Part shown: piece after piece, positions 1,422 through 64,000 of the stretch
Numbering within the stretch: the first letter of the stretch is position 1
Layout of the letters: the number at the start of each line of letters is the position of its first letter
DNA from: Flectonema sp. DT1601
Lineage: Eukaryota
NCBI GenBank assembly: GCA_964019425.1
Contig: OZ025783.1
Span: 558,001-622,000, forward strand
Length of the DNA: 64,000 bases
Direction: 5' to 3'
Position numbers and translations under genes: made by a program
The notes under the pieces: generated by a model
Database searches by the model: none
What the model was told of the DNA's origin: nothing
The model's input: the letters and a program-made list of their open reading frames with translations, nothing else

Positions 1422-1493
1422 CAACCGTGGCAGGACTCGAACCTGCAACCGCCTGATCCGTAGTCAGGCGCTCTTCCATTGAGCCACACGGTC
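1422..1493 (-). tRNA. tRNA-Arg(ACG)
   Basis: Reverse complement GACCGTG-TGGCTCAATGGAAGAGC-G-CCTGA CT ACG GA TCAGG-CGGTT-GCAGG TTCGAGT CCTGC-CACGGTT-G folds as a 72-nt cloverleaf with A and B boxes. Confidence 0.97.
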
Positions 1494-20803: not shown

Positions 20804-23800
20804 ATGGGAGGCGGGATCTCCATTGAAGGAAATGACCGACACCGTGGGGTGGATACCAAATTCAGAGTCTGCATTGCAATCGATTTTGATCGAAGAAAAC
20901 ACAACGTCCGCTTCAATATTAAAACCAGTGGGAGACCTGACATAGATTCTTTAATGCGATTGGCTGAATGGCATTACAGCAGAGAAATGATGGCAATCGG
21001 AGGAAGAGGAAGGTTTATATGCGACCAAATTCAAGTGTACTCAAACTACACTAAAAGATGGACAGACTTAACAGATGCTTCAATGATTCCAAATGGAGGG
21101 CAGTTGTTTGTATTTCAACCTGTAAGTGGTTCTTATGATTCAGATCCAACACCATCTGCTATTCCTGATGCTATTGGAGAGGCTTCAGTAACATCATTAC
21201 GTCCTATTCACGTCGAGTACTCGCTGGAGCACAAATTACGAGCGGTATTTACGTCTGTTGATAAAACTGATAAAAAATATATTCTTCTCGGTGAGGTTCA
21301 CGACTACCTATCAAAGTGTCGCTCTCCATCAACAACAGATTTCGATTACACTGCGGTAGAGCGCTGGTTCTCAAGGCTTAACACTCGCGGAAATGGTCGC
21401 GTTACATACCAGCAGTGGGCTCGTTTTGGAGCAGATCACCCTCAGCTTGTGGATCTCTTATTTGATAGACCTCGTTCATCTGTGAACTCTGTCCCATCAC
21501 AGGTTTGGAATCAACTTGCTAAACAACATCAAAATTACGTTCTCAGACGCGACATTAGAGATGCTTTCATCAAATCGAATATCGACTGGGATCCGCACTC
21601 CGTTGGGCACTTGTTCGATGCTATCGATTCTGATTACAGCGGACACATCACATTTGATGAGTGGATGCGATTCGCTGACAGGAATCCATCGATAGTCTCA
21701 CGACTTCACAACACTGCTGATGTCTGGTCACGACTAACTCACGGCAAGTCGTATGCTCTGCGAAGGGATATCCGTGATGCCTTTATCAGGGCTGGTTTAT
21801 CGTGGGACTCGACAACTGTCGAACATCTCTTCGATGCTATCGATTCTGACTACAGCGGACACATCACATATGATGAGTGGATGCGATTCGCTGACAGGAA
21901 TCCGAACATCGTCTCTCGATTAGAGAGAGGTGACAGAACTATTACTTCACACCAACGCAGCGATCTCTGGTCGCAGTTGTCTGGAGGGAAGTCATACGCT
22001 CTGAGACGTGACATTAGAGATGTCTTTATGAAGTTAAATATCAAATGGGATTATCAAAATGTTGGTCATCTCTTCGATGCTATCGATTCTGACTACAGCG
22101 GACACATCACATATGATGAGTGGATGCGATTCGCTGATGGCCACCCTTCGTTGGTGCGAAGACTTGAACAACAACAATTAAATAATTCATATTCGGTTCG
22201 TGATGTTGATAAAGCTTTAATTACATCTTCATGGGGTAACTTAACGAGAGGAAGAGGTAACTATATTAATACCTCTCAGCTACTAAACTTGATGGGTGGA
22301 GCTGAACGTGATTACGTGGTTCGAACTTACCCAAGCGGAAAGGTGTACTGGGAAGATTGGTGGACGTTGTGCCACCTTTATCCTCAAGTACCAAATCAGG
22401 TAAGTGGTCAACAGTCACTTGGTGGAGGGTACTCACAATCTCATCCTCGTGACAGGGATCACAGTCAACTATCAAGTTCAGAGATAGAATTGGGATGGAA
22501 GAAGTACTCTCGCAGTAATCTTCTTTATCCAACTGAAGTGCCTCTTGCGCTCGGTCTTTCTTCAGTTGGGTTTAACTTTCCATCATCTCCTTTAACGTGG
22601 ACTGACTGGTGGGATTTCGCCCACACGTATGTTCCCCGTTCTGATACCTGGTCTCAGTTGACTCACGGCAAGTCGTATGCTCTGCGAAGGGATATCCGTG
22701 ATGCCTTTATCAGGGCTGATCTGTCGTGGGACTCGATGACTGTTGGGCACCTGTTCGATGCTATCGATTCTGATTACAGCGGACACATCACATATGATGA
22801 GTGGATGCGATTCGCTGACAGGAATCCGAACATCGTCTCTCGATTAGAGCGGACTGCATCCAGTCCATCGAGAAGTTACTCGCGCACTGATTCTTCACTG
22901 TGGTCACAACTGACTCACGGCAAGTCGTATGCTCTGCGAAGGGACATCCGTGATGCCTTCATTAGGGCTAATCTGTCGTGGGACTCGATGACTGTTGGAC
23001 ACTTGTTCGATGCTATCGATTCTGATTACAGCGGACACATCACATATGATGAGTGGATGCGATTCGCTGACAGGAACCAATCAATAATATCCAGACTGGA
23101 AAGAGGTGACAGGGGACTAGATACAGGGAGGTACCACCACGACTCTTCCCGAACACAGATTCGAACTCCGGGTGACGTTTGGTCGCAGCTAACGAAAGGA
23201 AAGTCATACGCTCAGAGAAGAGATATCCGTGATGCCTTTATTAAGTCTGGGTTAGAATGGGATCAGCTTACTGTTGGGCACTTGTTCGATGCTATCGATT
23301 CTGACTACAGCGGACACATCACATATGATGAGTGGATGCGATTCGCTGACAGGAATCCGAACATCGTCTCTCGATTAGAGCGGACTGCATCCAGTCCATC
23401 GAGAAGTTACTCGCGCACTGATTCTTCACTGTGGTCACAACTGACTCACGGCAAGTCGTATGCTCTGCGAAGAGACATCCGTGATGCCTTCATTAGGGCT
23501 AATCTGTCGTGGGACTCGATGACTGTTGGACACTTGTTCGATGCTATCGATTCTGACTACAGCGGACGCATTACATATGATGAGTGGATGCGATTCGCTG
23601 ACAGGAACCCATCGTTAGTCTCACAGTTAGAGAGAGGAGCTGTTTCATCTCCGAGACGCTCTTTCGGGGAAAGTGTTTCCAGAGATGCGCACACAACACG
23701 GAGCTTGTGGTCACAGCTAACTCACGGCAAGTCGTATGCTCTGCGAAGAGACATCCGTGATGCCTTTATCAGGGCTGATCTGTCGTGGGACTCGATGACT

Positions 23801-34266: not shown

Positions 34267-37200
34267 ATGGAATCGAGTACAGAATTAAGTGTCGGACAGA
34301 AGGAGAAACAGACAAGAGAAGAAGACGAGGCTGAATTCTTGGCACATACGTTGCCGTTATTTCCAATACTAGGAAGCCTTGGTGTACTGTGGCCATCGCT
34401 TGTCAGTACCACAGCAATACTCATCACTTGTATTCAACCGCTGTCGTATATTTTAAATGCCCATTGGTCATGGGGAACAAGCGTTGGTAGGCTATCTGAA
34501 GTTAGTTACTTTTTCTTACTTCCTTTTTGGGATACGAAGTACCCCTACCACTGGGGAGGGCTAGCTTCATTGGTGGCATTTTGGGTGTTGATTTTCTTTA
34601 CGACAACACTCACTGTTGTGATTGTGTTCTGTTTAAAAGTTGATCTTCTGAAGGGAAAACCTCTCGTAACATTCAGAGTTGCAGTTCATCTTGTCACATC
34701 AACAGCTTTAATGCCAAGTCTTTTAATTATCATGTCAGCTATGGTTTGCGATTCTGACAAGGTTAATGTGTACCTGACACCTGACGTTTCATGCGCCAGC
34801 CCAACTCATTATTTGGCAATATTCGCGGGGTCGATATCATACTGTCTTATTGCATTGTATGCATGCACTGTAAGGACACTGTTGTATGTCGATACTCCTT
34901 TTTCACAAGTTAGAACCGCAAGGTGTCATCATTATAATGAAGTAATATCTCTTTGTTATGAAATCATAACACCGATTCTGTACGTTAATTTGATAGCAAG
35001 CAACAAACACCAGCTATTTGCAAGTTTGCATAGTATCGCAACATTCTTGTTGGCGGTGTCTTATGCCTTTATCCTTCCATATTACAACGACACTTCGAAT
35101 GTGGTTAAGGTTTCATCATATTTCACTGCGAGCGTAACGTCTGCGATAGCCTCAGGTTTGGAATGGGAAGTGACTCAAAGAAATGCAGACATTTCGTTGT
35201 TGATTATTACTTTTATTCTATGCTGGTCGATAGGAATCTCGGTGGTACGTTTTGGGCGAATGAATGGACAGGCTCAAGCAGCATGTAGGAGTATTAGATT
35301 AAATCCGAGGGACTATGTTGAAGAAGTGTTAGAAAGTAATTTAAAATACCCAACCAGATTACCATGGCATGATTTATCGTTTGGGAATTTCTCAAAATAT
35401 GAAGAGGCATTGACTCCTAGCAAGGATACCGATAGCGTTACGGAAGTGGATGCTGTTTTGATTTCTAAAGTGAAACCTGTTCCAACAATGAGAGTCCCTG
35501 GCCTGACTTGTATATACCTACCTACTGATATAGAACTGTGTTGCAGACTCCTTCGTGAATATTGTCAATCTGTAGAAGAGATGCCGACACCGAAAATGCT
35601 TCTTTACTACGGTCGAATCTACAACAAGGGGATATGTAAGTATCCTGACTGTTTAATGTTACGCTATCACTTTGCTTTGTTCTTAGCAAATTATTGTGAG
35701 CAGTATCCCATGGCTTTGTCTGAAGTTCGGAAACTACAAAAAGAGGATCTCTCTATTCCCCTCATCTATCGACTTTATAAATTCAGTACCCTCCTGAAAA
35801 GTGTATTAAATATCAGAGATTGTACCCATCAAAAGGTTCTTCAAAGAGCAAGATCTCTTCACAAGCAAACTCTTGGGTATATGGTCAGCTTTTGGGTTAA
35901 ACTGCTCAGTGATAAATTTGACACGTTAGATATTGCACAGTTAGCCAACACGATAACTGAGAAGAGAGATGAAGGAATGCAAGTTTTCGAAGAAGCTGTT
36001 GCAACAAAATGCGACATAGCAACTGCTCTTGGATATGCAAAGTTCTTAGAACAAGTAATGTTAGACGTAACTGGTGCTCAACTTGTAAGAGAAAAGATTC
36101 TCGAACCCAATGATGACAAATCAGTAAAGTCTGGTTCACTACATTGTCAATCACAAACCGAAGAACTTCGCAATCATATTATCAAATCATTCGGTAATAA
36201 ACGTCTTCGTAAGACGAAGAGTAAAACAATAAACAGATTGTCAGCTGAGATGCACATCTTATTCGTTGTGTTTGCCATCATAATTGCTGGGGTTGGTGTT
36301 TTAAATACGATTCTTGGCACCCGCAGAAACGAATTAGTTAGCACCGCACACGAAGCAGGAGATCTTCGGGCACTCGTTGTTCACGGAGCATATATTTCCA
36401 GGAGAATTAGACATGCAGCAGAAATAGAGAAAATGGGCGATTCTGCCTGTAGGAAAGCAGTATGTAACCCTCTTGGGAAAGTTCAGGGAACGAATGATTG
36501 TTCAAAGCAGTCATTTTTAAAAACTACTGAGCTGAAAGCCGAGCTCCTCAAAATGACCAACGAGATAAGAGATATAACTGGTAAACTAACATACGGTGGA
36601 CATAGGACTTCTTATGGACCGTTGATTGCTCATTATGGAACACAGTCGACTGAAATAATAACAGTGGCTGGGAATGACACTGGTTCTGCTCGTCTTGCAG
36701 GTCTTTGGGAAGTAATATTATTAGCAATCGCTTCCTTTGAGTCGATCTTAGATTCTGATATGCCGTGCTTGACTGAAGGTGCTCCACAAGCCTTCTTAGA
36801 TGAGAACAGTCTGTTCGCTCTATCTCATTCTATGAACGTCTCTCTCAACTTATACGAAGAACAGTTTGAATTAGCAATGACTGAGGGTTTAGTTATAAAT
36901 ATCTTTTTGTTTTTTGGAGGACTGTTTGTGGTTATATGTGTATACTTCGTGTTGGAGATAAACTTCTTGAAGATCGGGATGGCGAAGATGGAAACGTTAA
37001 ACTTATTTGCACTGATACCAAAGAACACAGTAACAGACATTCACGCAGACAGTAGCGATCATTTATTGAATTTTGAAATTGCTGATACCCAGCCGAGTGG
37101 TGATAGTTCTGCGTCTGTTGTAAATGATGAAGACAACGAGCAGATCGCTGATGAAGATGGAGAAACTGCATTTGCGAAAATATTTAGTAAAAATACGGCA

Positions 37201-40200
37201 AAAGCTGATGGGGCGTACATCAAACATAAATCTGATACGGAAAAGTCTGTTCTTGGAAAAGAACGTCAAGTTGTACGCCAACGTTTTGATGACGATGAAA
37301 TGACTCAATTAGACGACGACGCCACTAACATCGAATCAAAAAGAAGCTACTGGTCACGCTACGGACATATCTTATTGTGGGGTGGTCGTGGACTGTCAGT
37401 AGCAGTCTGGTTGGTTACTTTTATTCTTTTCTTTATCGCGAGAGGTCTGATGCAGGATGACATTAATGGTTCCCTTGTCGAACTCGACTACGAGAACATC
37501 AGATCTCAACTGTTAAGAGACATCAGAACTTGGGAGAAGAATGCTCAATTTTATTCTTTAACTTGTGACTTGGATGCTTACGTGTCGTACAATGATATTT
37601 CTGACAAGAGGGTTTTGGAAAAAACTCTTTCAGCATTGCAGCTACTGGTGTCCACTCCTCATTATCATTTAGAAATTACGGAGGGTATGAAAAAACTAAG
37701 AGAAACTCACGATTATGTAATGCGAACCAATCGCTGTGACAATCCTCTGAAGGAATACTTTGTTGATGACTACTACGATGGGTCATTGGTTGGACTGTTT
37801 GAGAAGGAGGAACACGTCGTAGCAAAAAAGAAACTATTTGATGCAGTTTCAGCAATGAATCATATAATACCAAGACCTGCTGCAAGTCACGATGTGCTGC
37901 TGTTAGTTGCCGTTCTCGAAATCGTTCTCGCAGCGATGTTTCTTTTGCTCCCAAGTCATTCTTCTCACAGCACTGTAAGTAATATTTTATTTAAACTGTG
38001 TTCAGTTGTCACAGTTGTAAATATGTTGTTCACTTTTGCGTGTCTCAGGAATGTTGATATCGTGAATTCACTTCGAGTCAACATGTTGGACATTCAAACA
38101 GCAACTGATAAAATGGAAACAGTTTTATTCAGCAGTGAATCATCACTCTACGCTTACATATCTTATAGAGACCTCGAACACTACGAGGGTGTTGAAAACC
38201 ACCATGTCGGTGATGCTGTTGCAGAAGTAGTCCAGCTTCTGATTAAAGAAGGATACTCGTACGATTCTCTTTCTCAACTTCAAGATAAAATAGCAGAATA
38301 TTCAATGCAACATGGCCATGCTGTTGTCGCAGCAGCTTTATCGAATAACCATGAATTAGCAGAGATAATGACTGTTCATCTTCTTACAATGGACATACGA
38401 GGATTAAATAATAGCGAACTGTATGCAAAGGCACAGTACACTATTAGATCAAAGGAATACGTAAATTCGTTTAAGGAATTTCATACGGTCCTCGAGGAAC
38501 TAAACCTTTACAGCTATGATGTGTTTAAAGGAAAGGAAGCACTCGCTAACAGGGACACCAAGACTATTATGGTTATTGTCCTAGCTGCGCTTATTTTAGG
38601 CCATGGCATCTTATCGGGAGTTTCTGTGTCGAAATCATCTCAAGTAACAAATACAAAAGAAAGTGCAGCTTCACCGGCAGCGCTATTCGTAGACTTAACT
38701 AGTAAGATAAGAATGTCGTTGGTAATTGTCGCCTTGATTCTTATCGCAATCTCAATATTTGAGATAAAAGCAGTTCTTGTAAGCAGAGATCTCGCTCCCA
38801 GGATTAATCAAGCATCATCACGTGAATGGCTCGTATGTCGTGGAATCTTATCCAGTCAGCAATACCTCGAGAGGTCAGTTGGCTCAACCTTACCCGGACA
38901 TCTTAGATGGTCAAAAGAAATAGTTCACGAAGTCATAGGAGAACTCAGAGAAAGTAGCGATCGATTATATTTTGGACCAGGCAGTAAGAAAGACTTTACA
39001 GCATTGGAGGTGTTCGGGCCAACGAAGTCGAAGAATAGCAGGACGCAGTGCGCGAATGTTGACTACATTCCATTTATCGATGTTGACAGTGAATGCAGAA
39101 GATTTTCTTCTCGCATTCTGGAATTGCGATATGAAGACTCTCACGAACAGTTGTCTAATGACGATATGTTGACTTACGTTGAACATGTTCTCACTGCTCT
39201 TCGTGACAACACGAGGAAGTTTGAACAACGGGCAAAAAAGGAAATCAGCAAACAGCAACTATCGTTAACTATTTTATTATCAATAATGGTAGCAGTTCTG
39301 GTCCTCGAGTACGTAATCGTATTCGAGCCAGTCACAGCTCGTTTACAACGAGAAGAAGAAGCAACAAAACTCATGCTGCGAATGATTCCTGAAAAGGAAC
39401 GCCGTACCGTAGGTGCTATTGTTGAATATCTTGAAACAGGTAAGATCACAACGAATACTAAACTTCAGGAAGTATCAGAAGCTGTCAGTGAGATGAATAC
39501 GATTCCAACTATTGCTATTGATGGTTACGGCACGGTTTTAAAGTTCTCAAAATTAGCTGAAGAACTATTCGGATTCACTGACCGAGAAGTAATCGGATGT
39601 AATGTTAAAAAGATCATCCCTGAAGACATTGCTAAAAATCACGACTTCTACCTTGCTCGATACCGCAAAACAGGAGTACGACACATAGTCGGTTCGGATA
39701 GAAATGTTAAGGGACAGAAGAAGGATGGAACCCTCTTCCCAGCTAATATTTGTGTGAGAGAATCTCGGAGGGGTAGAAAATCAATTTTCATTGGATTTGT
39801 CACTGATATTACACTTGACCTCGAAAATGCCCGTGCCACTCAACTAAACGCCACAATTTCGAAAACCAGCTCCACCCCCTTTGTCTGCGCAAATCAAAAA
39901 GGAGGCATAATAAGATGGAATAAGGCTGCTGTAGACGTATTTGGTTTTACCGAAAAAGAAGCATTGCAATGTAATTTGAAAGTTTTGATGACGCCCGAGG
40001 TTGCTGAAAAACACGACTCCTACATTGAAACGTATCTCAGAACTAAAAAGAAAACTGTAATAGGAAATACTGTTCGCCAAGTTGCTGTTCGAAAGGGAGG
40101 TGAAACATTTCCAATAGAGCTACGCGTTGAGGAGTTGATGTGGACGGGATCAGAACGAATCTTTAATGCTTGCGTAAAAGATATAACAAGCGTATGTTTT

Positions 40201-43200
40201 ACTTCTCATTATTTTATTAATCAAAACAAATAATTTCATCAACACATTCAATCAGGTTGTTAGGGCTACTCGACTAGTAGCCATTCATGAGATTATGATG
40301 AGAATGTCACCAACTCCGATGGTAATGGCGGGTCAGACTGGTATCATAACTCAGGTAAATCCTCAGGCTGAACTGGAGTTGGGGTGGACATCTCGCGACG
40401 CCGTTGGCAAAAATGTTAAAATATTACAACCAGACAACGTGAAAGCAAAACATGACGGCTATCTATCCGCCTATGTCAAGACGGGAAAGAAGAAAATGAT
40501 TGGCAAGACTGCTGATGTGAAATTAATCAGAAAAGACGGAACGTCTTACGATGTGGCCTTGAGTGTGAGGTCAGTATCACCTCCTCCTGATAGTTCTTTT
40601 CAACACGTCTTTCTCGCATTCTTCAGAGATCTCACAACAGATAAGAGGAATGAAGCTGTCGCATTGACGACTGCAAAGTCCGCAGCACTATCACCTACAC
40701 CATACATCTGTATAGATGAGATAGGTACTATGATGGTTTTTAATAAAGCTGCAACTCAATTAATTGGATACACAGAACAAGAAGCAGTTGGTCAGAATGT
40801 AAAAATGATTCAACCTCCCGACGTGGCAGCCAAACACGACGGTTACTTAGCAACATACAAGTTGACAGGTGAAAAACGAGCTTTGGCGTCTGTGAGGATT
40901 ATGAAATGTAGGAAAAAGACCGGAGACGTGTTTTCTTGTGAATTGAAAATAGCTGAAACAATACTGCCGACGGGGGAAAAAAGATTTTCGGGATACATCA
41001 TGGATGTCACTGTGAGAGAAACAACAATTATAAACAACGAAATGTGCGATGCCGTTGTCAGTATCTGTCCGTACCCATTGATCGCTATAAATCCACAAGG
41101 CAGAATTCAAGTATTTTCAAAAGCTGCAGCCCAACAATTTGGTCACACAACAGAATCAGTTATGAACCGCAATGTTAAAATAATTATGCCGGAAGAGTAC
41201 GCCGCAGAACACGACCGATACCTTCAGAATTATTTAGACACCGGAAAGCCGAATATAATTGGAAAGATTGGAGTACCGGTGACTGCTATGCGAGCTAATG
41301 GGGGTGTTTTTCAGGCAGAAATATCAATTCAGGAAGTGAAAAAACAACAAGTCAGGGTATTTGCTGCAGTAATCATCGACGTTGAAGCCCTTCGTGGAAA
41401 AGACGACAAACTCCGAGTAGCAAACGTAATAATGATGAAAAGTCCATCTGCGACTATCGTTATCGGAGCTACGGGTCTTATTGATGTGTTTTCTTATGAG
41501 GCTTTGAAATTATTTGGATATTCAGATTTTGAGGAAGTCAGAGGAAAAAACATTAAAATGATGATGCCAGAAAAACGTGCCGAAATGCACGACCACTATC
41601 TTTCAATGTACGCAAAGAAGGGAATTAAAAATGTTATTGGAAGAGACTTCAGAGAACTTGGAAAGCGTTTAGACGGTACTGAAGTAGAACTCGCCTTCGC
41701 AATTAGAGAACACGCGATCACAGACATGTTTGGAGTTCGTTGGACTAAGTTTATAGCATACGCGACAGACACACGAGAGGCATATCTCGCGGAGCAGGCG
41801 AACGTTCTTAACGAAGTTGCTGTTGACATGGCTGACTTACCATTTGTCAGACTTTCCTTAACCGGAAAGATAGTGAGAATTAATAGAGAAGCTGAAGAGT
41901 GTTTTCAATACACTTCTAGAGAAGCAATTGGAATGAACATCAGAATGTTCATGCCTGAAGAGATCGCTTCAAAGCACGATGGCTATCTCGCAAAGTATCG
42001 AAAGACGGGTACGAAAACTGTGATTAATCAAACAACCCGACAAACTGGTATTAGGAAAAATGGAAAAACATTCCCCGTTGAGATATGTGTGAGAGAATTA
42101 GAAGAAGTAGATGGTCAGATGTGGTATTGCGGATCTATCAGAGATATTACGGCCAGAACTATTGAAGAACAAGAGCTAGACAGAGCAAAGAAGATAGTTT
42201 CACTGACATCAGAACCAATGGTCTGTATCGATGCTAAGGGTATCATGTTAGAAGCAAATGTTGCTTTATCAAATTTAACCGGTTTCGACGTTGGCACTCT
42301 TAAAGGTTCAAATATTAAAATACTAATGCCTGAAGAAATCTCTGTCAAACACGACCAGTACCTTAAAAGTTATCTTAAAACCCGAGAAAGAACAATCATC
42401 GGAGGTGAACCTCGTAATATTGTATTCAAAACACGTCGCGGAGAATTAAACGAAACCTCCATTAGAGTTCAAGAATTAGAGGGTGAAGGCATCTATGTTG
42501 GATTCTTTTCAGTTGATTTTCAAGAAAATCTTTTATCAGAAACAAATCAAAAGACTCACGAGGCGTTATTTAAACTTCTAATCAACCCAACACTTATGAT
42601 GACCCACTTGGGGATAATAAAAGAAGCCAGTGTCTCTTGTGAATCATTTGGCTTTGCAAGAAGTGATCTGGTTGGGTCAAACATAACTATGATACAGCCT
42701 CCTGAAGTGGCGTCGGTTCACGATGATATTTTAGCAACTTATACCAAAACAAGAATACCACACGTTATTGGTTCTGAAAGGAGAATTAAAGTTCAGAAGA
42801 AGGATGGAGTTCTCGTTGAGCATAGAATCATAGTAAAGGAAGTTACTCCACCAGACCATCCTGAACCACTTTTTCTCGGCGAACTCACCGACACTTCTGG
42901 TGAAGACTTAGCGACAAAGACCTTTTCAAAAATGAATTCTCTTTTACAACAAGCTCCGTTTGGTATTTTTAAAGTCTCTGAAATTGGTACTGTTGAGTTA
43001 GTAAACAAATATACAGAAATATTCGGCTATGAAGAAAAAGAATACCTCGGCCAAAATATAAAAATGATTACGGGAGTACACAAAGAAAGACACGATATGT
43101 ACTTACAAAAATATAAAGAAACTCGAGTGAAACACATCATTGATACTTCGCAGAGATTAAAAGCAGAAACTAAAGACGGAACACAACTTGACGTTAATGT

Positions 43201-44401
43201 TACAGTCAGAGAAATTGAAGGAAAGAATGGAATGTTTCCTCCAGTATTTGTCGCATGTGTCTCTGACGCCTCACAAGAAATTAAGATGGAAGCAGCTCAC
43301 TGTCAATCAAAATTTATGCTGGACAATATACCATTGCCACTTGTTGTGACTGATACTGAAGGTGTCATTAGCAAGTTCTCGTTATCATTTGAAAGGACCT
43401 TTGGATGGAAATCATCGCCAGTCGGTAGCAATATCACCTCCATCCAACCTCGTAAAGTAGCTGAAAAACATGGTGGTTATCTGAAGGCGTACTTACAAAG
43501 TGGAGTGAAAACCGTGATGGATACGAAAACAGTAGTTACAGCATCGAGTATTCAAGGTGAGCGAATTAAAGTTGAATTATGGATCAAAGAGTTTGCAATT
43601 AGAAATCAAAAACACTACGTTGGGTTCATTAGGGATCTTCGATACACTACCGCAGCTGAAGATTCAAAGCGAACTGGTGAAATTATTGCAACCAATTGCT
43701 CTGCTTCGATAGTTTGCATTACTGAAAAGGGAATTATAAAACAGGTAAATCCTGCGTTCTTATCTTTGACAAAGTATGCAGAGGAAGATCTGATAGACAA
43801 CAACATTCGTCATATTATGCCGGAGCCGCACCGTACCAACCATGACAGCTACCTCGCAAATTACATGGAAACTAAAATAACAAAAGTTATAAACGCTACT
43901 ACTGCAGTAAGCATCATCTCACGAAGTAATACGGAAATAGCAGTTCAACTAACTGTCAAACAATTAGATAGGATTGGTGAGCCTCCAATGTTTTTGGGTA
44001 GTATCAAAGATGCGAGGGAAGAGTTAATCTTAGAAAGGGTTTCAAAGCAATCTCAGATCCTACAAGAACTCTGTCCAGAGACGGTTATTACTTTAACAAA
44101 CAAGGGAATAATTCATAATGTAAATCTCGCATGCAGTGTTATTGGTTACACTCCTGAAGAATTAATTAACAACAACATTACAATGATTATGGACCCAGCC
44201 ATTGCTCCTGAACATCCAGGGTATCTCAAACGTTACGAAGACACTGGAGAGAAACGAGCTATCGGTAAGCAAACTGCAGTTAAAGTCTTAAATAAGGATG
44301 GCATCCTTAGAGCGGGTATACTGCTTCTGCGAGAATGTGGCACCCAAAGTTCGAAAGGTGAAAATAAACAAACTTTTTTTGTTGGTTTTATCACCTTTTA
44401 A
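34267..44401 (+). CDS. TmcB-like polytopic membrane protein with TPR-like region, TM-flanked extracytoplasmic helical modules and 13 tandem FixL-like PAS domains; 2 exons, ~3356 aa
   Basis: Exons 34267-40191 and 40256-44401 joined in frame by a 64-nt GTATGT...CAG intron; N-terminal hydrophobic cluster; 13 repeats of N(V/I)x2-3(M/Q)P...H(D/G/P)xYL..Y..(T/S)(G/R/K). Confidence 0.88.
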
Positions 44402-45255: not shown

Positions 45256-45777
45256 ATGGGAGGAATACACACTCGACTTACTGAGTCTCAAGGAATTGAA
45301 GAGCTTACAATAAATAAACGACCTGACTGGGTACCTGATGAAGCAACCACCGTATGCCGTAAATGTGATAAACATTTTAATGGACTTAGAAGAAGACATC
45401 ATTGCAGAGCTTGTGGACAGTTGTTTTGTAGTCATTGTGTAGGTCTTGGAATGTTAGGTAGTTTGGGGTATAAAGGACCTGTATTACAGTGTCATGTTTG
45501 TATGGAACAACTACTACATCAATTCAAACATCAAATATCAACGTTAGTCCTCCCTCGTACTGCTGATACGGAATCTGATGATGAAACTGAAGACGCATTG
45601 ATACCAATTCAACTGAATTACTCTCCCAGTTTAAAAGTAACAGTACCTCAGTCACCTAATCTAGGACCACCGATACTGTCTCTTTGTAGATTAGTTTCTT
45701 CTTCGTTGTCTTCGGTGAGTCCTTCTCCTGAAAGTAGATCTGATTCATCAACACCGTATTGGGAAGGAATAAATTGA
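45256..45777 (+). CDS. FYVE zinc-finger protein (PI3P-binding)
   Basis: WVPDE...CRKC...RRHHCRACG.LFC..C...C..C; N-terminal MGGIHT could be myristoylated. Confidence 0.9.
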   Translation: MGGIHTRLTESQGIEELTINKRPDWVPDEATTVCRKCDKHFNGLRRRHHCRACGQLFCSHCVGLGMLGSLGYKGPVLQCHVCMEQLLHQFKHQISTLVLPRTADTESDDETEDALIPIQLNYSPSLKVTVPQSPNLGPPILSLCRLVSSSLSSVSPSPESRSDSSTPYWEGIN

Positions 45778-47792
45778 TTCTTCTTAAATATAAGATACGA
45801 ATCCTTCTTATGCCAGTGCTAATCTGGAGACTCAATACATTCGAGTTATTCAAGTCACTCATCATGTTGACAGATCTCAACAAAATGGTGACTCCATTAC
45901 TGTTTGAGATATTTAACATTCCTATTTGGATTTGTTTCTTAAATCTTATCAAACAAAGTAGTTTATCTTTCGAATGAGATGATTTCCTTGGATGGAACAA
46001 TAGGCTATCCTGGTGAACACGTTATGTAAGTGAGAAATAAAATAAAATAAAAAATGACATAATACAAAAAAGTTTATTTGATGTTATTCAAATGCAGCCT
46101 TTGCGGTAATTTTTTTTTTTTTTTTTTTTTGGTGTGGACAAAAAAAAAAAAAAAGAATGCTGTAACAGGAAAAGAAGTGCGCCTGTCATGTGGAATAGAA
46201 TATGTCTTGGGGGTTGTAGGTCACGCGTTTTTTTTTACCCCTGTGTGTTTTCTTCTCGACAAGGAAAATAACAATAATAATAATAATAAAACGGAGTAGG
46301 AATAGATCGTCAAAGTAGGCATTACGTCCCACCCATTGCGGTTGATGTTTATCTCTGAAACATTCTTTTTATTATGCGTCTTTGGTCGCTGACCGTTACA
46401 AGTGTTGTTTGGTGTTTGTGGTGTTCTTTTCTGCTTTAGTTGGAACATCGAGGATGCAACTTCTTGTTCTTTTTTTTTTTTTTTTTAAATACTTGCGAGT
46501 AAAAAAGTTATATACAATTTTACACTATTCTACCTGATGAAAAGTCACAACAAAATATCCTTCGCATTTCCCCCCTCTTATTTTTCCTTATTATTGTATT
46601 TTGCTAATTAATTGTTGGGATTTAGATCTTTTTTTTTTTTTATTTTGTTTTCTTATTTCTAAAGTGATTAGAAAAGGGAACCCAATTCAGTAAAACATTT
46701 TTTGGGCGTCGTGAAAAAAAAAATAGTTTTTGTTCATTTTGGTCATCTTTTTTTTTGTAGTTTAATATTGTTGGCTTTGAGTATGAAGCTGTAAGAAATA
46801 AAAAAAACAGTTCTGTTTCCCGTAGTTTTTAAAATTTCTCGTTTTTTTTTTTCTTTTTTTTTTTTTTGCCCCCCTTTCCCCTTTCAGTTTAGCCTTATTA
46901 CTTATTTTAGTATTAAAAAGTTATTACTGTTTTCTACATTGTCAAACAATCACTCTGCTGTCTTTCCTTCACTATAACACTTTTTTCTGTGGCTCACACT
47001 ATCGTGTTTTTGAGTTCACCTTTTGAGACTAATTTAAAAAAAGAAAAAAGAAAAAAAAAAACAGTTGTAGTTGATTTTTTTTTGTTCTACTGCCTTACCT
47101 TTTCCACTCAAATCACGAGAACGTAATTAGTATTGATGAGCTACTCACGCTTTGCATAATTTAATTTTTATTTTTTTTTGGAAGAGAGCATCTTTTGTGG
47201 TTACTTCTGTTCATTTTTTTTTCTTCTGTTTTTAAGAAATGTTTAAACACTTCAAATACATTTCTTCTGGTTGGGTTTGCTTCATGGTTCATGGTTGAAA
47301 GTTAAAGAGTCGAAGGAACTGAGAGATTGTTGTTAGTATCTGAAACAACATCGATCTTCATTAGGATGATATTTTATCCTTTTTTTGTTTTCTTTTTGAA
47401 GTGGAGGATCGATGTGGTGTGGTGTAGGCTAACTTTTTTTTTTTGCAAACACATTTTGTATGTGCTTTCTGGTGACATTCCTCAATCAAAATGTCAAGTT
47501 AGTGTTGTTACTGTCTTTGACTCCGTGTGGTGATTTGTTGGAATTTAATTTTTTTTAATTTTTTTTTTTTTGGCTTTAAAAGCCATTAGGAATGTTCCTG
47601 CAAAAACGTGTCTCAGTTTCATCGGCTCGTCACAACTCACGAGAGTTACGTGAAGCAAAACTACTCCCTTTTTTTTATTGTTATTATTTTATTAAAAAAA
47701 AAAAAGAAATCAAATTGTGACCGACATATGGCATTGTTATTGTTATTTATTATTATTTTTTTTTTGTTATTTAAATCTGTTTAGTTATTATT

Positions 47793-48933
47793 TCTTGCAT
47801 CCTGATCCCTTTAAAAAGAAAAAAAAAATAATAAAGAGATCGATGCAGGGCTACATTTGTTATGTCGAACTCTCTAACACGGCAAACACGTTGTTGTGAA
47901 TGATGTGCTAACCTGAGCTGCGTGGATGTATTTTTAAAAAAGAATTTATACGGAGTTAGGCTTTTTATAATTCCCCAGCAGGTGGTGCAGTCGTTGAGTG
48001 GTTTTGGAGTGAACTGTTTGTTCTTGCGTATACTCTTCACCGCAGGCAAAGAAAAAAAAAAAAAAAAAAAAAAACTGTTTACTTAATAATCTACATCCTG
48101 ATCCCTTAAAGTACAACGGGATCGATGTAGGACCGCATTGATAACCTAATTGTCTTTTTGAGGGCAAATTTTTGACAAAGTATTTGGTTGATTCAGAATG
48201 TAAAATTTTTAATTGTTGCTTAGTCACTTCTTGTTGGTTTAATAGTAGTTAAATAAATCTCCCTTTTTTTTTTTTTGCTCAAATAATTTTTTTTTTTTAA
48301 ATTTTTTATTTCGTCTTAAATAACAATATGCATCCCGATCCCTTCGAACACAGAAGGATCGATGCCATCTTTCATTTTTTTTTTTTTTTTTTTTTTTTTA
48401 CATCCACACTTTCGTATAGAAGGAAATATAACTGAGCTGGTTGATCAAAAGGTTCGCAACTCCGTTTTGATCTCCTTGTTTTTCACCCCTCTGTTCGTTA
48501 GGAAAAGTTCATTATCTCAGCAACTAATGTTAAATTATTATTATGTTGTTTATGATACAATACATTTGTATTTTACGTACAAAATCGAACAGTTAACCCC
48601 CCCGTTCGTGAGCAAAAAAACGCTTTGGGTGTTCGTTTTGGGGGGTTTTCTGATTTCTAACTTGCAGCGCCAAGCCCAATGCAAATTGATTCTACAACCC
48701 CAGTGTACTTCACCTCCAAAGGAATTTATGGAACAAGGTCAAAAGCTCAATTTTATATGTTCTTTTCTTTTTTTTTTTTTTTTGAATGAAAAAAAATAAT
48801 GTTCACTGGTTAATCTTCTCCCACGAGAGTTGTTACCAACCTTCCAGTGTGATGTAAATTATGTGTTTTCTTGCATTTGTTTGATAGTGTTGTCCTCATC
48901 CTGATCCCTTGACACAAATAAAGGATAAGATGA
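47793..48933. repeat. Dispersed family of four hairpin elements sharing CATCCYGATCCCTT...GAT(C/AA)GATG
   Basis: Copies at 47793-47850, 48090-48131, 48328-48368 and 48896-48933; outer stems differ in sequence but remain complementary. Confidence 0.75.
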
Positions 48934-49854
48934 ATAGCATATTATTAAAAAGAAATTCATCAACAGTTAGTTGACACGTACAATTATCTGTTAGCTTAGT
49001 TTCATAAAACGACCAGAGTTTAAGTAAGTAGTTGTTCTACTTTTTTTGCTTTCTCTTCGTAGCAGCCTTATTGGGCGTTTACTTTCTTTTTATGAAGCAA
49101 GGTTTTTGTGCTAAAAGGACACTCGTTTAACCTCCTTTAGCCTTCAGCCAAATTCCCTGCCCTTCCTTCTTCCTGTTTTTGATAAAACGGTTCATCAAAT
49201 GGAAAGTTTCTCCCTTCCCCCCTTTTTTTTATTCACAACAAACGACCTTAGCGATTAATTTATTTGTTTGATAGCTCTTGCTAAAATAGCATAATCAATA
49301 ACCCTAGTATATTGATCTTAGGCGGAGGGAGACTGTAAACTGGTGAGCGGCTTAGCCGTGTTAATGGTGTTTTGCTGTGGTCTTGTAAGGTAAGAGTTAA
49401 GTGACTGTGTTCAATTTTATCGTTTTTATTTATCTCCTTCATTCCCCTTCTATCCCTATTATTTGCCTACCCTTTAATTTTTTTTATTATGCGCTATTTT
49501 AGCTTATTATTACGTTATTTATTTATTTATGTTTTTTTTTTTCTTCTTTTTTTTTTCCCCCTCCGTTGAGCAGAGTGTTTGGGAAGTCAGCGCTATCGCT
49601 TTAGGCTGTCCCACAATCGTGTAAGGCTTTAGTACATCTGGCCTAGTGTATGAAAGAAAGAAATACTTCATTGAACTCTTGTAGAAGTCAAATCATAATA
49701 GAGAGGGTTTCACGTTGACTGAATAATCTTCAGTGACTAGGTGACCCAACTCCTTCTAACTGACTTCCTCGATTTAGTATGCATGATTGAGATCACGGTT
49801 TCCGTTATTTTTCTTTTTTTTACTTTCCTCTACTTGCGTTGGATTGTAGTTAGC

Positions 49855-49891
<37 letters not shown>

Positions 49892-50568
49892 CCCCTCTTT
49901 TTTTAAAAAAATCCAATTTCTATTTTATTATTTTTTATTGAACTAATTATTTATTTTATTCTATTTTTTTTTTTTTTTATCAGTTTTTTCTGGTTTGATT
50001 TACCACTACTGACGAGAGAAACGAAACGATAAAAACCCCAAAAAAAGGTTTAAAAAAAAAAAACAAAACCCACCACATAACGTTAGATAATCACGGTAGC
50101 ACAACTACCTTGTTGTCTGCAGGGCTAAATCGCTAACCGGTATGTAATCCATTAACGGATTTGTTCCAGGCAGTAGTTATTCTGGAAGGCACGATGGTGA
50201 AAACCATCATAAGTTCTATTGAGAAGCTGCTTCTGACCGAATGGTTTTGGTGGTGGGTTGTGACCAACGGAATTCATATTTTAACTGAGCACCGTCTACT
50301 ATTGATCTATTGTAACACCAAAAAGAAATGATTTTTAAAAAAAAAAAAAAAAAAACATTTCTTTCCGATCGTTTAAACGAAAAACTGTCTCGAATCAACG
50401 ATGAACAAGAAGACTGTTCAGTATCCGCACGGCACACTGTTCTGTTGGTAGATAATGTTTTCTATGAGAGTTGATTATGAGTAAAACTTGACTTATGTTG
50501 AATGTCTTTGTTTTATTATTTTTTTTTCACTTCGCTTTTACAGGAATACGATGTAACACAAAAAAAAG

Positions 50569-51756
50569 ATGATAATAATATTTAAAATAATACTCACACT
50601 CTCTCTGTGTATCTCTGTAAGATCTGATATACCAAAAGGAGAGATAGCCAATATCACAAATGGCGCACAAGCATTGATAACGGCAGGTAGATTTCACTGC
50701 CCAGATTGTAACAGCTCAACAGACTGTGGAAAGTATGCATCTGTTGGGAAGAGACAAGCAGACACTGAATGGAGACTTTGGAAGAGTGATTATCACTACA
50801 AGGACGAACAACTATCGGGAATGAAATTATGCCTCCGCCAGTGGATGATTGGATGTAATTGTCCAACAGCACCTTGTCTTTGCAACTCATTTTCGGAAGT
50901 CTGCATCGCTTCGTCAGCTCTCTTTGATGAGGAACACCGTCTTCATCCTTATGAAATATGCAGTACTGAAGCATTTATGAATCCTGGTTCTGTAACTTTA
51001 GTAATTACAATCCCATTGTTTCTTACTATTGCTTCTCTTTGTCTTGTTGTTATAGCAGTTCATTATTCATTTGTTCATGGTTTCGCTACATGTCCTCCTG
51101 CCCTCAGTAGGCTGCCTATAATGTTGTTGTCGGCATTGCTTATTGCGTATTCGTTTCTGACGTTTTTCTCGCCGTATTTTACAACTGGAATCGCTGGTGT
51201 GTTCGTTGCTATCCTGGCGTTGTTTTCGCATACAATCGCACATGCTGCTGAGATTGGCAATAAAATTGATAAAGGACACAGATGGCTATCCTTTGCAGCC
51301 TTCACAACTATTGTAGTAGTGTACACAATATGGGGGGCTGGATATCCAAACAGAGCTGGCTTGTCGGCAGACGAGTTAGGAGCGGATTGCAGTAAGTTCT
51401 ACGGATTCTTTGTTATAGATCAAAAGTTAACACCTCCGGGTTTTAATAAAGAGGTAAAATATTGGGGTTACTGTGAACGCGAATTTATTGCTGACACACT
51501 ATGGAATGTTACAGCTGTTATATGGGTTGGTCTACTCATTAGTGCCCTTCACTTATACACACTTGCTGCGCAGACAACAGCTACTCGGATTGCTGAACAA
51601 GAAGACTTAGAAGGAAAGGTTGCTGGTGGTCCAGGAACATTCCTCGTATCTCGTAGCGCTCCTGGAATGAGAAGAGGTAAGGAACCAATTTCAGGAAGTG
51701 GTACCAGCATTCCTTCAGTACAGAGTTACAGTGATGTTCATGTTATGTTGACATAA
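50569..51756 (+). CDS. Membrane protein with signal peptide, Cys-rich ectodomain and about five TM helices
   Basis: Signal-like MIIIFKIILTLSLCISVRS; ~10 Cys in the ectodomain; five hydrophobic stretches; Cys pair in the last loop (CSKFYG...YWGYC). Confidence 0.8.
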   Translation: MIIIFKIILTLSLCISVRSDIPKGEIANITNGAQALITAGRFHCPDCNSSTDCGKYASVGKRQADTEWRLWKSDYHYKDEQLSGMKLCLRQWMIGCNCPTAPCLCNSFSEVCIASSALFDEEHRLHPYEICSTEAFMNPGSVTLVITIPLFLTIASLCLVVIAVHYSFVHGFATCPPALSRLPIMLLSALLIAYSFLTFFSPYFTTGIAGVFVAILALFSHTIAHAAEIGNKIDKGHRWLSFAAFTTIVVVYTIWGAGYPNRAGLSADELGADCSKFYGFFVIDQKLTPPGFNKEVKYWGYCEREFIADTLWNVTAVIWVGLLISALHLYTLAAQTTATRIAEQEDLEGKVAGGPGTFLVSRSAPGMRRGKEPISGSGTSIPSVQSYSDVHVMLT

Positions 51757-59165: not shown

Positions 59166-59786
59166 TTCTTCGGTGAAATGAATATACTGCCGAAGTTCTT
59201 TTTATTTATCTTTTTGTTTTAGCCATTCACTTGGTTGTTGAGAAGTTCGTCGTTCGTTTTCTTTTTTTTTTCTTTTAAAAGAAAGAAAAGTTGTGGTGGA
59301 CATATCTCGCCAACATTGTACACGTTATCCCTACCGCTGGCTTTAGAAGTCGTCATTATTGACTTTGGTCTCCAACACGATTGATCAAAGTGAGTAGCCG
59401 ATACTTATATAATATTGGTTTCTGTAATAGCCTTCTGATGTGTCATCAAATGTACGATGTGTGTTATGTTTTCCAACATAGCACCATCTAATGTAATTCA
59501 AAAGAACAGCGTCGAAAAATAAAGAAAAAAGGGGTTCTGATTACCACCCGCCATATTGCCGTACTCTTTATGCATTTCTCCAATTGTTATTATCACAGAG
59601 ACCATGGTTACAGTTAACACTTGTCCAGTCTGTGTTTTGGTTAGTTGTAGTCGTTATTATTTAACCTTTAACATCATCTGTCTTACAGGTTGTTTTTGTG
59701 TCAATCGTGTGGTTTGTGTGGTGTTATCTTGTCCTCGTATCACACGGAATTTTATTATTTATTTCAACAGTTGGGTGGCTGACAAG

Positions 59787-62700
59787 ATGCAGGGCTACCA
59801 GACTGCCTGGTCCCTGGCAATTGTTATGATGTTTGTATCTGTGCAGGGACTTCCTGGGCCACCGTCAAATGTTGAAATGCATTTTTGGGACACCCGTTGT
59901 AATAGTTTAATGTATAGAAGCTGGTCATACCTAACTGAGGGCCAAGTGAGCTTACAAAGTGTTGCTTTCTCTGAAGAAGGACTTTACAGCTGGGATGATC
60001 ATACTAGCCGGGTATCCAACGACAATGTAATTAGACAATCAGAGTTAGTGGCTGCTGGCTTTGGAGCTGCGTGGTTTGTTAATGCGAACTCTTCATTTAC
60101 AACAAATAAACAATTATGGTTATCTACTATTGATAGCTACGAAGATCAATTTCTTACTAGCAGTGACTTAGTTAGGATTTATGGTTTTCCTTGGTACCGT
60201 TTTGAAGCGTTTGAGTTGTTTTCATTTTACAGACGGCCAGTTGAAGAAGTTGTTCGTCCATTGTTACTAAATTTGGACTCACCTGCTGACTTACATTCTG
60301 ATGCACGGCAAGTGATATTTTCACATGTCGATCCTGACTCTAAGCTGATCAGAACGATATCACTTTTTGAAGTATTTAGGAAGTCGAGAGTCTTATTGAA
60401 TGTCGGTAGTACTCAAAGTGATTTAACGAATATCATAATTACGTCTCCGTTTGTTAGTTCTGATTGGGTCGTCTACACGGAGTTTGATGTGAATTCTAAA
60501 AAATCTCAAGTCTGGATTGAAGACACCAGCATTGAAACAAGAGAACTCGCACTTCATCCTGATCTACAAACATTTTGGGGATCTGTGTGGAATACTAGTT
60601 CACCTCTTGTTGTTGATGGTGGTGATTACGCGGCAGTTGCATTTTGTTCTTTTCTTTTATCAGAAATTGATTCCTTGCAACTTATTAATGATGAAGACAC
60701 TTACAGGGTTGTCCCGTTACAAAAGAATAGCAAACTACACGTCACAGTAATGCTATTCCCTTCTCGATTTAGATGTGAAATCACATACGACATGTGGAGC
60801 AGTATTATTCTATCTACTGTTAGTACTATCACTCTTGTTGATTACCTTGGAGGAGGAGGTTTTCTATTTCTTTCAATCTCTTACAACGAAGATGGTCAAC
60901 AACGTTACGGAATTATCGCTTATCCGATTAAAACATGTATTGGGGAAGAAGGAGAAAAACCATTTCTAGTTCCTAACTCAGTCTCACTCACACCTATCAA
61001 GTTAGTTACGTCATCATACGATGGTGTAATATTCGCAACAGCAAACGTGTTATTCACTATTAAAGTTTATGCAAAGGGTGCATTCGGAGAATACAATACA
61101 CTAATTTGTAGGTCCTTTGACGAAGACTTTCCAACCATCGGAGCGGTGTCGTTATTAAATGATCAGTTGATCTATCAAAAAAAGAATTTGGAAGCTGAGG
61201 CGAGCTATCAATTTGCTCTAAGTCAAGGCAGTTCTGCTAAAGAGCTTCAAGCTTTGAAATCAACTATAAATGAAATGCTTAGAATGGATCTTGATAAAGA
61301 TAATGATCGACATTGGGATGCCGTGGATCGATTCCCTCTGCGATCAGCTTTTTTCAATGACAGTGACAACGATGGAATTGGTATGTACATCATCCTACTA
61401 CAACATAATAAAATACAACCCACGCAACCACTCAACTAAAACAGGTGACCAAGGAGACATAGTAGCCAATGACGATAGCTGTGCTAACGATCTGAGAACA
61501 AACCCTGCTGGGTGTTGGGATGACATTAGAGTTCTTTATATAACTTGGTCAGTTGTAACTCTTTGTGTTATCTTAATTGCTGGATCCATCGGATATTACA
61601 ATAAAAAAAGTAGAGAGAAACTCTACACCAAAAAGAAAGCAACAGCAGACGAATGGATCAATAGACAATGGAGAGAAACAACAAGACATGACGTGACTGA
61701 AGAAGAGTTGTTTACATTGATGGCTGATCTTGACGACAGAATTCAGCATGAACAGGGCATGTCTAATTACACTCTTCATACGTTTGCAATATCAAAACGA
61801 AAACAAAACAAAAAAAACAATACAGGAATGCTAAAGTCTGGTGAAACTGTTGTACAAGCATTCTTATTCCTTTTGACAATGGCATCTGTGGTTCTTTGGA
61901 TTTCTTCAATGTGGTCACTCAATGGTTTTAATTTAGCTGAAGAGCACGCTCTAGCTTGGGTTGACTTTTATACCTCAACAGTGTTCTTGATTGATTTAAC
62001 CTACAGGTGGGTCTTCAGAGATGAAGGAGAATATTTAAACTTCAGAGACTACTGCCTTAAGAATTGGTACGACTTCCCTTCTCTCATATCTGACGTTCCC
62101 GGAGTCACTACTGCTGGACCTCTTAATATTTTAGTAGTTGCGAGACTTATTCGTGTTTTGAGAGTATTTAAAATGTTTCGAGTCGTTAGATTATATCACA
62201 AACTAACTCAACAACAAGCAGTCTTGGGATTAATTCTAAGATACGACACAATCTGGCAAGCTGTATTCGTCTGTGGTCTTATATTGTCATTGGGAGTCGT
62301 CATAAAACTATTTGAACAGCAAGAGGATCCTGAATTTGAACCGTATGCAAATGTTCTGTGGTTTTGTGTTGTCACAGTTACGACTATTGGATATGGTGAC
62401 ATGGTACCGGTGAATCCTGTTGCGAGAATTCTCGCAGTATTTTTGATGGTTTCGGGTATTGGGATCATCGGAGTTTTAACTGCTTCCATGGGAGACGCCG
62501 TTCGCTACTCCGGTGTCGACAAAGGAATGATGATGGAACGTGTTAAAAAATTACAACAAGGCAAATGGCGACTCGCACTCGAATACTTGCGTGTTTCTGT
62601 TTTATACAACCCGATCTTTAATGTTATTAAACCTTTCGCAAGAGGGAAGTGTGCCCATCCGAGTTGCACATGTCCATTAATTACTTCAGTGATTGGTTGC

Positions 62701-64000
62701 ATTAAAATATCATACGGCTACTACAAGTACCATGCTAATTGCTTTCGTTGCCATGGTTGTGGTCGTTCTCCATGGCATGGAGGATCTCTTAACAACACTG
62801 GTGAGTGTTGGGTTGTTACAGATGCGACACGCAGTCCTAGGCAACGTGGTCATCGTGGTTCGATTCCAGGAAAGTATAGCAGGAAAGGTGATGAAGAAAC
62901 AATTGAGTTTCGCTGTAAAGCAAACATATACCTTCATAGATCATGTCTTCTTCGTGATCGAGGAGGGAAGGACGATCTAGCAGGGACCGCTAGATCAGAA
63001 TCTTCAAGACTCTCTCGTGGTTCTGGTGGTGGCACAACAACATATGGTGCTTCTGGTGGAGAAGTTGTTGTTGAGGAATTACTCGTTAAAGGTTTAACTG
63101 GTGCAGCATATCAATTTAATGGAACGTACATAAGAAAACCAGCCATAGATGATGACAGTCCTGTACTCTTTGATCATAAGAAGAGTAATGCTGTCGTTAC
63201 TACAGGTGATAGTCGTAAACATTGGATTCTTGTAAACCGTTCAGGGACACAAGAAACGTGTTATGCGACTGCGCATTCTCTTTTGGGGGAATGGACTGGT
63301 AGTAATCCAAAGTTTGGACAGCCTTCAGTTGATGATGGTTGTGCTCAACACCATTCATGGTGGAAGATGTACGACACGTTAGATATTCCTCCTCGAAATT
63401 TAATTCAACACTACGCTTCTCATCGAACAAAGAATCAATTCTTAACTCTTATCGGTTGTCTTGACGAATCTGCTGAAACTTCTGGCGGAAAGTTCTCAGC
63501 CGGAGGTGCAAAAAAACGCACCGACTACTCCACAACAATTGAAAAAGTGAGAACTCAAATAAAGGTTGTTACAGATTTTGGTGAGAGGAGAGTGTTATTG
63601 AGGGCTCCATGCCTTTTACAAGACCGCCTTCAACTTATTTTAAAAACACATAAATTACAAGAGAATGAAAAGGTTAAAAACTATGAATTACTAAGAGACC
63701 ACTTGGAGTACTTAATATACCAGAAGTGTGGAAAAAAACTGCAAGGAACAATGTTGGCAAAGGTTTTTTCTATTAGAGCTTCGTTAGAACTTAGCGCAGA
63801 AATTCAACAACAAAAAGCGAAACACCAACACATGTCTGATAATGCATCTCAGACTCCATCTGGGGTATCAAGTTGGGGTGAATGGGATGATGAAGATATT
63901 GATTGGAGTGACCCAGTAGAGTGGACACTTCATGAATTAGACAGATGCCTTATTGATCATGATGTGGATAAGTTAGATGCTTATCCTTCAATAAAAACAG
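59787..64000 (+). CDS. Voltage-gated K+ channel with signal peptide, large ectodomain, extra TM and LIM-like cytoplasmic domain; runs off the window end
   Basis: Exon 59787-61380, intron 61381-61444, then a frame open to 64000 (absent from the ORF track because it has no stop): S4 RLIRVLRVFKMFRVVRL (~62143-62193), filter TTIGYGD (62380-62400), S6 ARILAVFLMVSGIGIIGVLTAS. Confidence 0.88.
61757..61825 (+). other. Putative GC-AG intron, 69 nt, in frame and stop-free
   Basis: GCATGT donor (one change from the local GTATGT consensus) and A/C-rich 3' end AAAACAAAACAAAAAAAACAATACAG typical of introns in this window. Confidence 0.7.

Follow-up and report, generated by a model that had tools for sequence, protein, structure and literature searches.

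The 7SK small nuclear RNA (snRNA) is an abundant RNA polymerase III (Pol III) transcript of ~330 nt with HEXIM and LARP7 as partners, and its GAUC/GAUC helix is framed by single-stranded uridines on both sides. Five iron-responsive elements (IREs), with a C bulge placed five pairs below a CAGUGN loop, are present in the 3' untranslated region (3' UTR) of the transferrin-receptor mRNA, and the procyclin 16-mer stem-loop is a structured 3' UTR element in Euglenozoa. The HEXIM-binding GAUC repeat is reported as part of hairpin 1 of metazoan 7SK (PMC2995076, PMC5389472), and the proteins TcUBP1 and TcRBP3 are reported to bind stem-loop motifs in Trypanosoma cruzi mRNAs (PMC2637893). For the diplonemid Diplonema papillatum, the genome paper describes genes in unidirectional clusters, interpreted as polycistronic units, and mRNAs that nearly all receive a spliced leader by trans-splicing; the 3' UTRs have a median of ~800 bp and lengths up to several kbp, and the authors suggest that regulatory RNA-binding proteins assemble on them (PMC10161547). 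Here we analysed a 64-kb stretch of DNA from Flectonema sp. DT1601 (contig OZ025783.1; hereafter the window), in which five hairpins, numbered hp0 to hp4, lie within 1.6 kb (47348-48933) of a non-coding spacer downstream of a gene for a FYVE zinc-finger protein. The repeat cluster is real, locally unique and structured and is known from one locus; it can reasonably be put forward as a candidate cis-regulatory RNA hairpin, new to a lineage that has received little study.

As in hairpin 1 of 7SK, two GAUC tetramers pair with each other within a longer hairpin in hp0-hp3, beside unpaired pyrimidines in hp1-hp3, which by analogy could form a site recognised by both sequence and shape. The unpaired CU or CC, however, is confined to the 5' strand, the bulge is missing from hp0, and five separate hairpins of 36-68 nt in a spacer stand against one domain of an snRNA of ~330 nt. 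To our knowledge, neither 7SK nor HEXIM has been reported in diplonemids, and the likeness to 7SK, which the sequence-only reading had offered as an analogy, stays one, with no 7SK match at E<=5 in the spacer. The IREs of the transferrin-receptor mRNA provide another possible analogy, in that copies of a small bulged hairpin occur within ~1 kb of an AU-rich 3' UTR, the stems vary while the recognition features are fixed, and binding is multivalent. The key difference is that the loops are free in the cluster (12-44 nt) while the stem and the bulge are conserved, and there was no IRE match in Rfam. The TcUBP1/TcRBP3 motifs and the procyclin stem-loop are structured 3' UTR elements of Euglenozoa, as the hairpins of the cluster may be, and polycistronic transcription puts control in this group largely on RNA-binding proteins; those motifs are single-copy and common to many mRNAs, whereas the cluster is a five-copy array at a single locus and is unrelated to them in sequence. 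The REP/BIME units of bacteria are likewise short, imperfectly palindromic elements in which one arm and a bulge are conserved, and they form clusters between genes in transcribed DNA, but they are bacterial, genome-wide and linked to the RAYT transposase, while the host here is a eukaryote and one locus is known. Locally repeated non-coding units between the genes of a diplonemid cluster are also described in the D. papillatum genome paper, but as units of ~400 bp that are 47-96% identical from end to end, whereas only a core of ~22 nt is common to the copies here and their spacing is irregular (PMC10161547).

The 14-mer CATCCYGATCCCTT was found four times in the window by a search that allowed up to two mismatches, at 47798, 48094, 48331 and 48897, with all copies exact and on the + strand. 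The mean number of CATCCYGATCCCTT matches in shuffles of the window was 0.64, and four or more were found in none of the 100 shuffles. No half-decayed copies at one to three mismatches were present in the 64 kb when the search was widened to four mismatches. The partner GATCGATG was observed nine times in the window against 1.66 expected, and five of the nine matches are in the cluster, including a reverse-strand match at 47349. It is exact in four copies, closing hp0-hp3, while hp4 carries GATAAGATG instead. These results agree with the sequence-only reading, which had listed four exact copies of the 14-mer, three of them with GATCGATG and the fourth with a different partner, and a fifth, bulge-less variant, which is present as hp0 when the sequence is read. 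A relaxed descriptor, CATC-N0-3-GATC...GATC-N0-3-GATG, matches hp0-hp3 only across the window. In the 20.9 kb of the window outside open reading frames (ORFs), the core is the sole complex 12-mer with at least three occurrences and, one unrelated 8-mer aside, the only local 8-/9-mer cluster of its kind. All five elements have the same orientation, with the bulged arm 5' on the + strand, and the spacings between successive elements are irregular (449, 296, 237 and 566 nt). A covariance model scan, which had been suggested earlier, was run over the window without filters by use of a model built from hp2 and hp3; it recovered hp1 with 27.4 bits (E 1.3e-4), scored hp4 at noise level (10.9 bits, E 3.1) and missed hp0.

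The pattern of the 14-mer followed by its partner was also searched outside the window. The prokaryote genome collection (596 Gb) gave 12 loci and the metagenome contigs gave nine, the latter on contigs of 48-70% G+C with five of the nine from one bacterial gene family, while the viral contigs gave no match. All of these were single matches, never two per locus, in unrelated and mostly G+C-rich bacterial DNA, and they were rejected as relatives of the cluster and ascribed to chance. A literature search with the 12-mer returned unrelated primer sequences only.

Table 1. The hairpins of the cluster and the surrounding features, with positions in the window
Feature	Position	Strand	Description	Basis
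hp0	47348..47415	+	Bulge-less; ACATCGATCTTC ... GGAGGATCGATGT; 12-bp stem; 44-nt loop containing a small hairpin and a T-rich tract	
hp1	47796..47847	+	TGCATC-CT-GATCCCTTT ... AAAGAGATC-GATGCA; A-rich 26-nt loop; one C.A mismatch, equal to G.U on the minus strand	
hp2	48091..48130	+	CTACATC-CT-GATCCC ... GGGATC-GATGTAG; 12-nt loop	
hp3	48330..48365	+	GCATC-CC-GATCC(C)TTC ... GAAGGATC-GATGC; T29 tract 12 nt downstream	
hp4	48896..48933	+	Degraded: TCATC-CTG-ATCC(C)TT ... AAGGAT-AA-GATGA; 5' arm exact, 3' arm changed	
Non-coding spacer with the cluster	45778..50568	+	4791 nt; G+C 31-33%; many T and A homopolymer runs	ORF map
Upstream gene	45256..45777	+	FYVE zinc-finger protein, 173 aa, complete	Pfam FYVE, E 2e-17
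Downstream gene	50569..51756	+	Membrane protein, 395 aa, diplonemid-only, complete	Protein matches

To describe the conservation of the copies, base pairs were counted by script (MAFFT alignments of all five copies mis-set the 3' arms), and covariation was assessed with 120 partner permutations across the five copies. The results showed much stronger conservation in the core than in the loops or the flanking sequence. The 5' arm is identical at 14 of 14 positions in three copies and at 13 of 14 in hp3, the 3' arms differ enough to give distinct upper stems, and the loops are unrelated between copies. Among 20 comparisons of 25-nt flanks, 19 were not significant at p<0.03, which was reached by one of the ten upstream pairs and by none of the ten downstream pairs. 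The pair just outside CATC/GATG (position -1) is Watson-Crick in all five copies with three pair types (A-T, G-C, A-T, G-C and T-A), for which the probability from base composition is 0.0015, and four of the 120 permutations did equally well. In addition, the outer stem is carried further by additional pairs in hp1 and hp2, and the inner position after CCCTT is T-A in hp1 and C-G in hp3. That ~22 core positions are intact amid randomised surroundings needs selection, very recent spread or correction at the DNA level, and simple neutral decay is insufficient.

The fold proposed for the first three bulged copies by the sequence-only reading, with an outer stem, a 2-nt CY bulge, a GAUC/GAUC helix and a short upper stem, was reproduced by RNAfold on the + strand for hp1-hp3. 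The predicted energies on this strand were -16.7 kcal/mol (z -4.5) for hp1, -17.1 kcal/mol (z -3.9) for hp2 and -14.1 kcal/mol (z -3.9) for hp3, and the bulge-less hp0 gave -23.8 kcal/mol (z -4.5). Within a context of 1.8 kb, the core pairs had a predicted probability of 0.99 for hp0 on either strand, 0.89 for hp2, 0.88 for hp3 and 0.84 for hp4.

We tentatively favour the reading, quite possible although we hold it somewhat short of probable, that hp0-hp4 are arrayed on a sense transcript as RNA hairpins that act in cis by binding a protein. Conservation that differs between core and surroundings, a closing pair that is retained, one common orientation and what is known of diplonemid biology all agree with this reading. 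The hairpins would be carried either in a long 3' UTR belonging to the FYVE mRNA or in the spacer portion of a polycistronic precursor, and RNA rather than DNA would be the functional form. The protein would read the invariant CAUC-CY-GAUCCCUU strand and the CY bulge displayed on a helix, while the 3' arm would only pair and would be free to change as long as pairing holds. Several copies could then allow multivalent binding, and a sequence- and shape-specific protein of this kind would set the stability, translation or processing of the transcript.

A number of observations weigh against an array of RNA hairpins. The covariation is real but thin, resting essentially on one column: the earlier claim that the outer stems covary stands for the -1 pair, stem positions -2 and -3 carry no signal (84 of 120 permutations do equally well for each), and the rest of the helix is silent on structure because it is invariant in all copies. 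The non-coding setting, the kept core and the single orientation nevertheless fit the proposal of a structured element that acts in cis from a spacer or a long 3' UTR, which is plausible for a diplonemid. The fold of hp4 on the + strand is weak (-7.0 kcal/mol, z -1.05), with 29 of 200 shuffles folding equally well, and the minus strand folds as well or better, with -17.6 kcal/mol for hp1, -18.0 for hp2, -15.0 for hp3 and -13.5 for hp4 (z -2.0 for hp4). The hp1 core pairs at a probability of 0.00 in the 1.8-kb + strand ensemble, because the A-rich hp1 loop pairs with a T-rich tract just upstream. Two C.A mismatches on the + strand (hp1 and hp4) would be G.U pairs on the minus strand, and three G.U pairs (hp0 inner and hp1 outer) are possible on the + strand only, so that the wobble pairs fall on opposite sides and leave the strand undecided. 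Stable hairpins as such are frequent in the non-coding DNA of the window, and the distinctive part of the cluster is the shared core. The flanks had been read as unrelated, as had the loops; this holds for the loops and for 19 of the 20 flank comparisons, but hp1 and hp2 clearly resemble each other in their upstream flanks (p=0.002; 81% by blastn over 42 columns including the 14-mer), and the copies may therefore stem from local duplication. Finally, the remaining 62 kb of the window, which include ~16 kb of other non-ORF DNA, gave no additional copy with the covariance model, the remaining matches having E values of at least 3.5; the scan of the window thus shows no regulon, and the copies may have arisen by local duplication alone.

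A bolder version would make the cluster the first structured cis-regulatory RNA motif of diplonemids, an IRE-like multivalent array through which a dedicated protein would decide what becomes of a long 3' UTR, or which trans-splicing or polyadenylation site is used, with the motif marking a genome-wide regulon; we regard this as rather unlikely. Diplonemids rank among the most abundant heterotrophic protists of the sea, and their genes are apparently transcribed in long one-strand arrays, as in trypanosomes, so control must fall on RNA. If functional, the cluster would be the first sequence handle on which proteins bind the long 3' UTRs of diplonemids, and a repeated hairpin of ~40 nt in which one strand is invariant and a bulge is present offers a concrete pull-down bait and a compact reporter cassette. 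The exceptional length of the 3' UTRs is pointed out in the D. papillatum genome paper, which also raises the question of their protein partners (PMC10161547).

Two other explanations appear unlikely to about the same degree. The copies could belong to a family of short palindromic DNA repeats that landed repeatedly in an AT-rich spacer, being mobile, of foldback type or propagated by an enzyme that recognises hairpins, and for which single-stranded or cruciform DNA is the form that matters. In favour of such a family, the copies are imperfect palindromes that fold equally well on both strands, their arms are near-identical without intermediate decay, as expected from recent spread, and the nuclear DNA of D. 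papillatum is described as rich in transposons and repeats (PMC10161547). The loops, however, differ wholly in length and sequence, as copies of a single mobile unit would not, the orientation is common to all five elements, and neither the rest of the window nor the viral contigs hold a copy, the bacterial matches being chance-like and single. No inverted repeat of at least 10 nt and high complexity brackets the cluster, and no direct target-site duplication (TSD), TA or other, was found at the arms, where the neighbouring bases are complementary. A miniature inverted-repeat transposable element (MITE) or foldback transposon with terminal inverted repeats (TIRs) was rejected, with no TIR, no TSD and no copy in the window outside 47348-48933; the sequence-only reading had named a genome-wide MITE or transposon remnant with TSDs among the findings that would overturn it. 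Should a scan of the genome show a dispersed palindromic repeat, the cluster would be an ordinary repeat family.

The other of the two would see in the cluster a functionless relic of local duplications of one ancestral hairpin segment, the arms being alike through recency, arm-to-arm correction or template switching. The confinement of all copies to 1.6 kb in one orientation, the likeness of the upstream flanks of hp1 and hp2, and the degenerate tandem arrays that adjoin genes in D. papillatum (PMC10161547) are consistent with such a history, which we nevertheless consider improbable. The spacings are irregular, the remaining flank pairs are not alike, and the identity of 14 + 8 core positions in three copies is unexpected from neutral decay that has randomised flanks and loops, while the covarying -1 pair argues for pairing having been retained. 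Self-comparison of the region by blastn found only cores and homopolymer runs alike apart from the hp1/hp2 upstream flanks, and a head-to-tail tandem array of the Diplonema type was rejected. Least likely is an independent non-coding transcript, in place of the FYVE 3' UTR, either a spacer long non-coding RNA or small RNAs processed out of the hairpins, and possibly an antisense one: the cluster is at least 1.6 kb from either gene, ~10 T-rich tracts that are potential trans-splice signals divide the spacer, and the minus strand folds well, but no small-RNA family of Rfam matches, no C/D boxes with a terminal stem are present (the lone candidate stem pairs at 3 of 5 positions), and a Dicer-type enzyme would usually need stems longer than the 10-16 bp present here.

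Known RNA families were then compared with the array of putative protein-binding hairpins. At gathering score, Rfam returned a tRNA at 1422-1493 as the only match in the whole window. At E<=5, ten weak matches were found in 45700-50700, mostly hairpins of homopolymer runs, and none of these was on hp0-hp4 save one to snoR11 (48004-48118), with 24 bits against a gathering score of 80; all ten were rejected. The 7SK, IRE and ribozyme models gave no match at either setting, and the description of the element as new in the sequence-only reading is thus upheld in that no known RNA family matches the cluster. A box C/D snoRNA, defined by RUGAUGA and CUGA boxes 60-130 nt apart and a terminal stem, was rejected, since the single box pair in the whole spacer is 56 nt apart and its terminal stem pairs at 3 of 5 positions. 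A K-turn has tandem sheared G.A pairs beside a 3-nt bulge; a K-turn reading of CUGA/GAUG was rejected on the basis of a bulge of 2 nt, four Watson-Crick pairs next to it (GAUC/GAUC) and the lack of CUGA in hp0. A likeness of GGATCGATGCC to the Pol III B-box was considered and dropped as post hoc.

Several minor features were observed in the spacer. A T-run/A-run foldback (T22...A15) at 46098-46167 is the source of spurious weak miRNA and leader matches in Rfam, and a perfect small palindrome, TGGCTTTAAAAGCCA, at 47571-47585 gave a weak minus-strand match to the Histone3 stem-loop, with 17.1 bits where the gathering score is 34. The 13-mer ATTTGTTTGATAG at 48875-48887, just 5' of hp4, occurs exactly again 387 nt downstream (49262-49274) with no hairpin after it; this second copy may be a sixth unit minus its hairpin, or may be due to chance. 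An A-rich tract followed by CAGTT(GT)AGTTGA is found at 47045-47074, ~275 nt before hp0, and at 48947-48974, 14 nt after hp4; the two are 77% alike over 30 columns with E 1.2 in self-comparison, so that a weak direct repeat bracketing the cluster is possible but not significant.

The genes on the two sides of the spacer were identified by protein comparison. The FYVE protein has 61% identity over 100% of the query to a 170-aa EukProt transcript protein marked complete, and the membrane protein downstream aligns over 99% of its length, at 80% identity, with a protein of 397 aa from Flectonema neradi, with 51% and 46% identity to Diplonema japonicum and Rhynchopus humris, respectively. With full-length matches on both sides, the flanking genes are whole and the gap is without their exons; the nearest relatives of the 395-aa protein are diplonemids, and the window is therefore nuclear DNA of a diplonemid near Flectonema. 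No protein-like ORF of at least 40 aa was found in the spacer, and the codon score in 47300-49000 was at most 5, compared with 7-9 for a control mini-exon of the SMC gene, which led us to reject a hidden exon or gene. The gap had been called non-coding from the outset, and this is borne out over all its 4791 nt. All of the 20 ORFs of at least 150 aa in the window are on the + strand, and the spacer is therefore probably inside a polycistronic unit; its transcription is predicted from gene orientation only. A literature search found no paper on a Flectonema nuclear genome.

The tRNA gene noted above (1422-1493, minus strand, 66.8 bits) is the only minus-strand feature found, and it lies upstream of the first long + strand ORF, like the edge of a transcription unit. 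The SMC gene (11446-15510) is present in three ORFs, which encode the N-terminal head, the hinge and the C-terminal head, and the control mini-exon, a coiled-coil segment of ~165 nt, lies between the first two. Its introns are of the GT...AG type, starting with GTATGT or GTTTGT and ending with ACAG or CCAG (e.g., ~11957-12029, 12196-12394 and 14427-14531), and ordinary spliceosomal introns are therefore present in this diplonemid. A protein of 1937 aa with many EF-hand pairs is encoded at 20804-26617 by up to 18 near-identical DNA units with a spacing of ~216-279 nt and a G+C of 0.45-0.50. Two adjoining large PAS-domain proteins of 1988 and 1368 aa are encoded at 34267-44401, the second with at least eight PAS stretches and a recurring KHDGYL-like motif. 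Two ORFs with ion-transport domains, at 59556-61439 and 61270-63999, overlap by 170 nt in different frames, which could reflect an intron or a frameshift in one gene.

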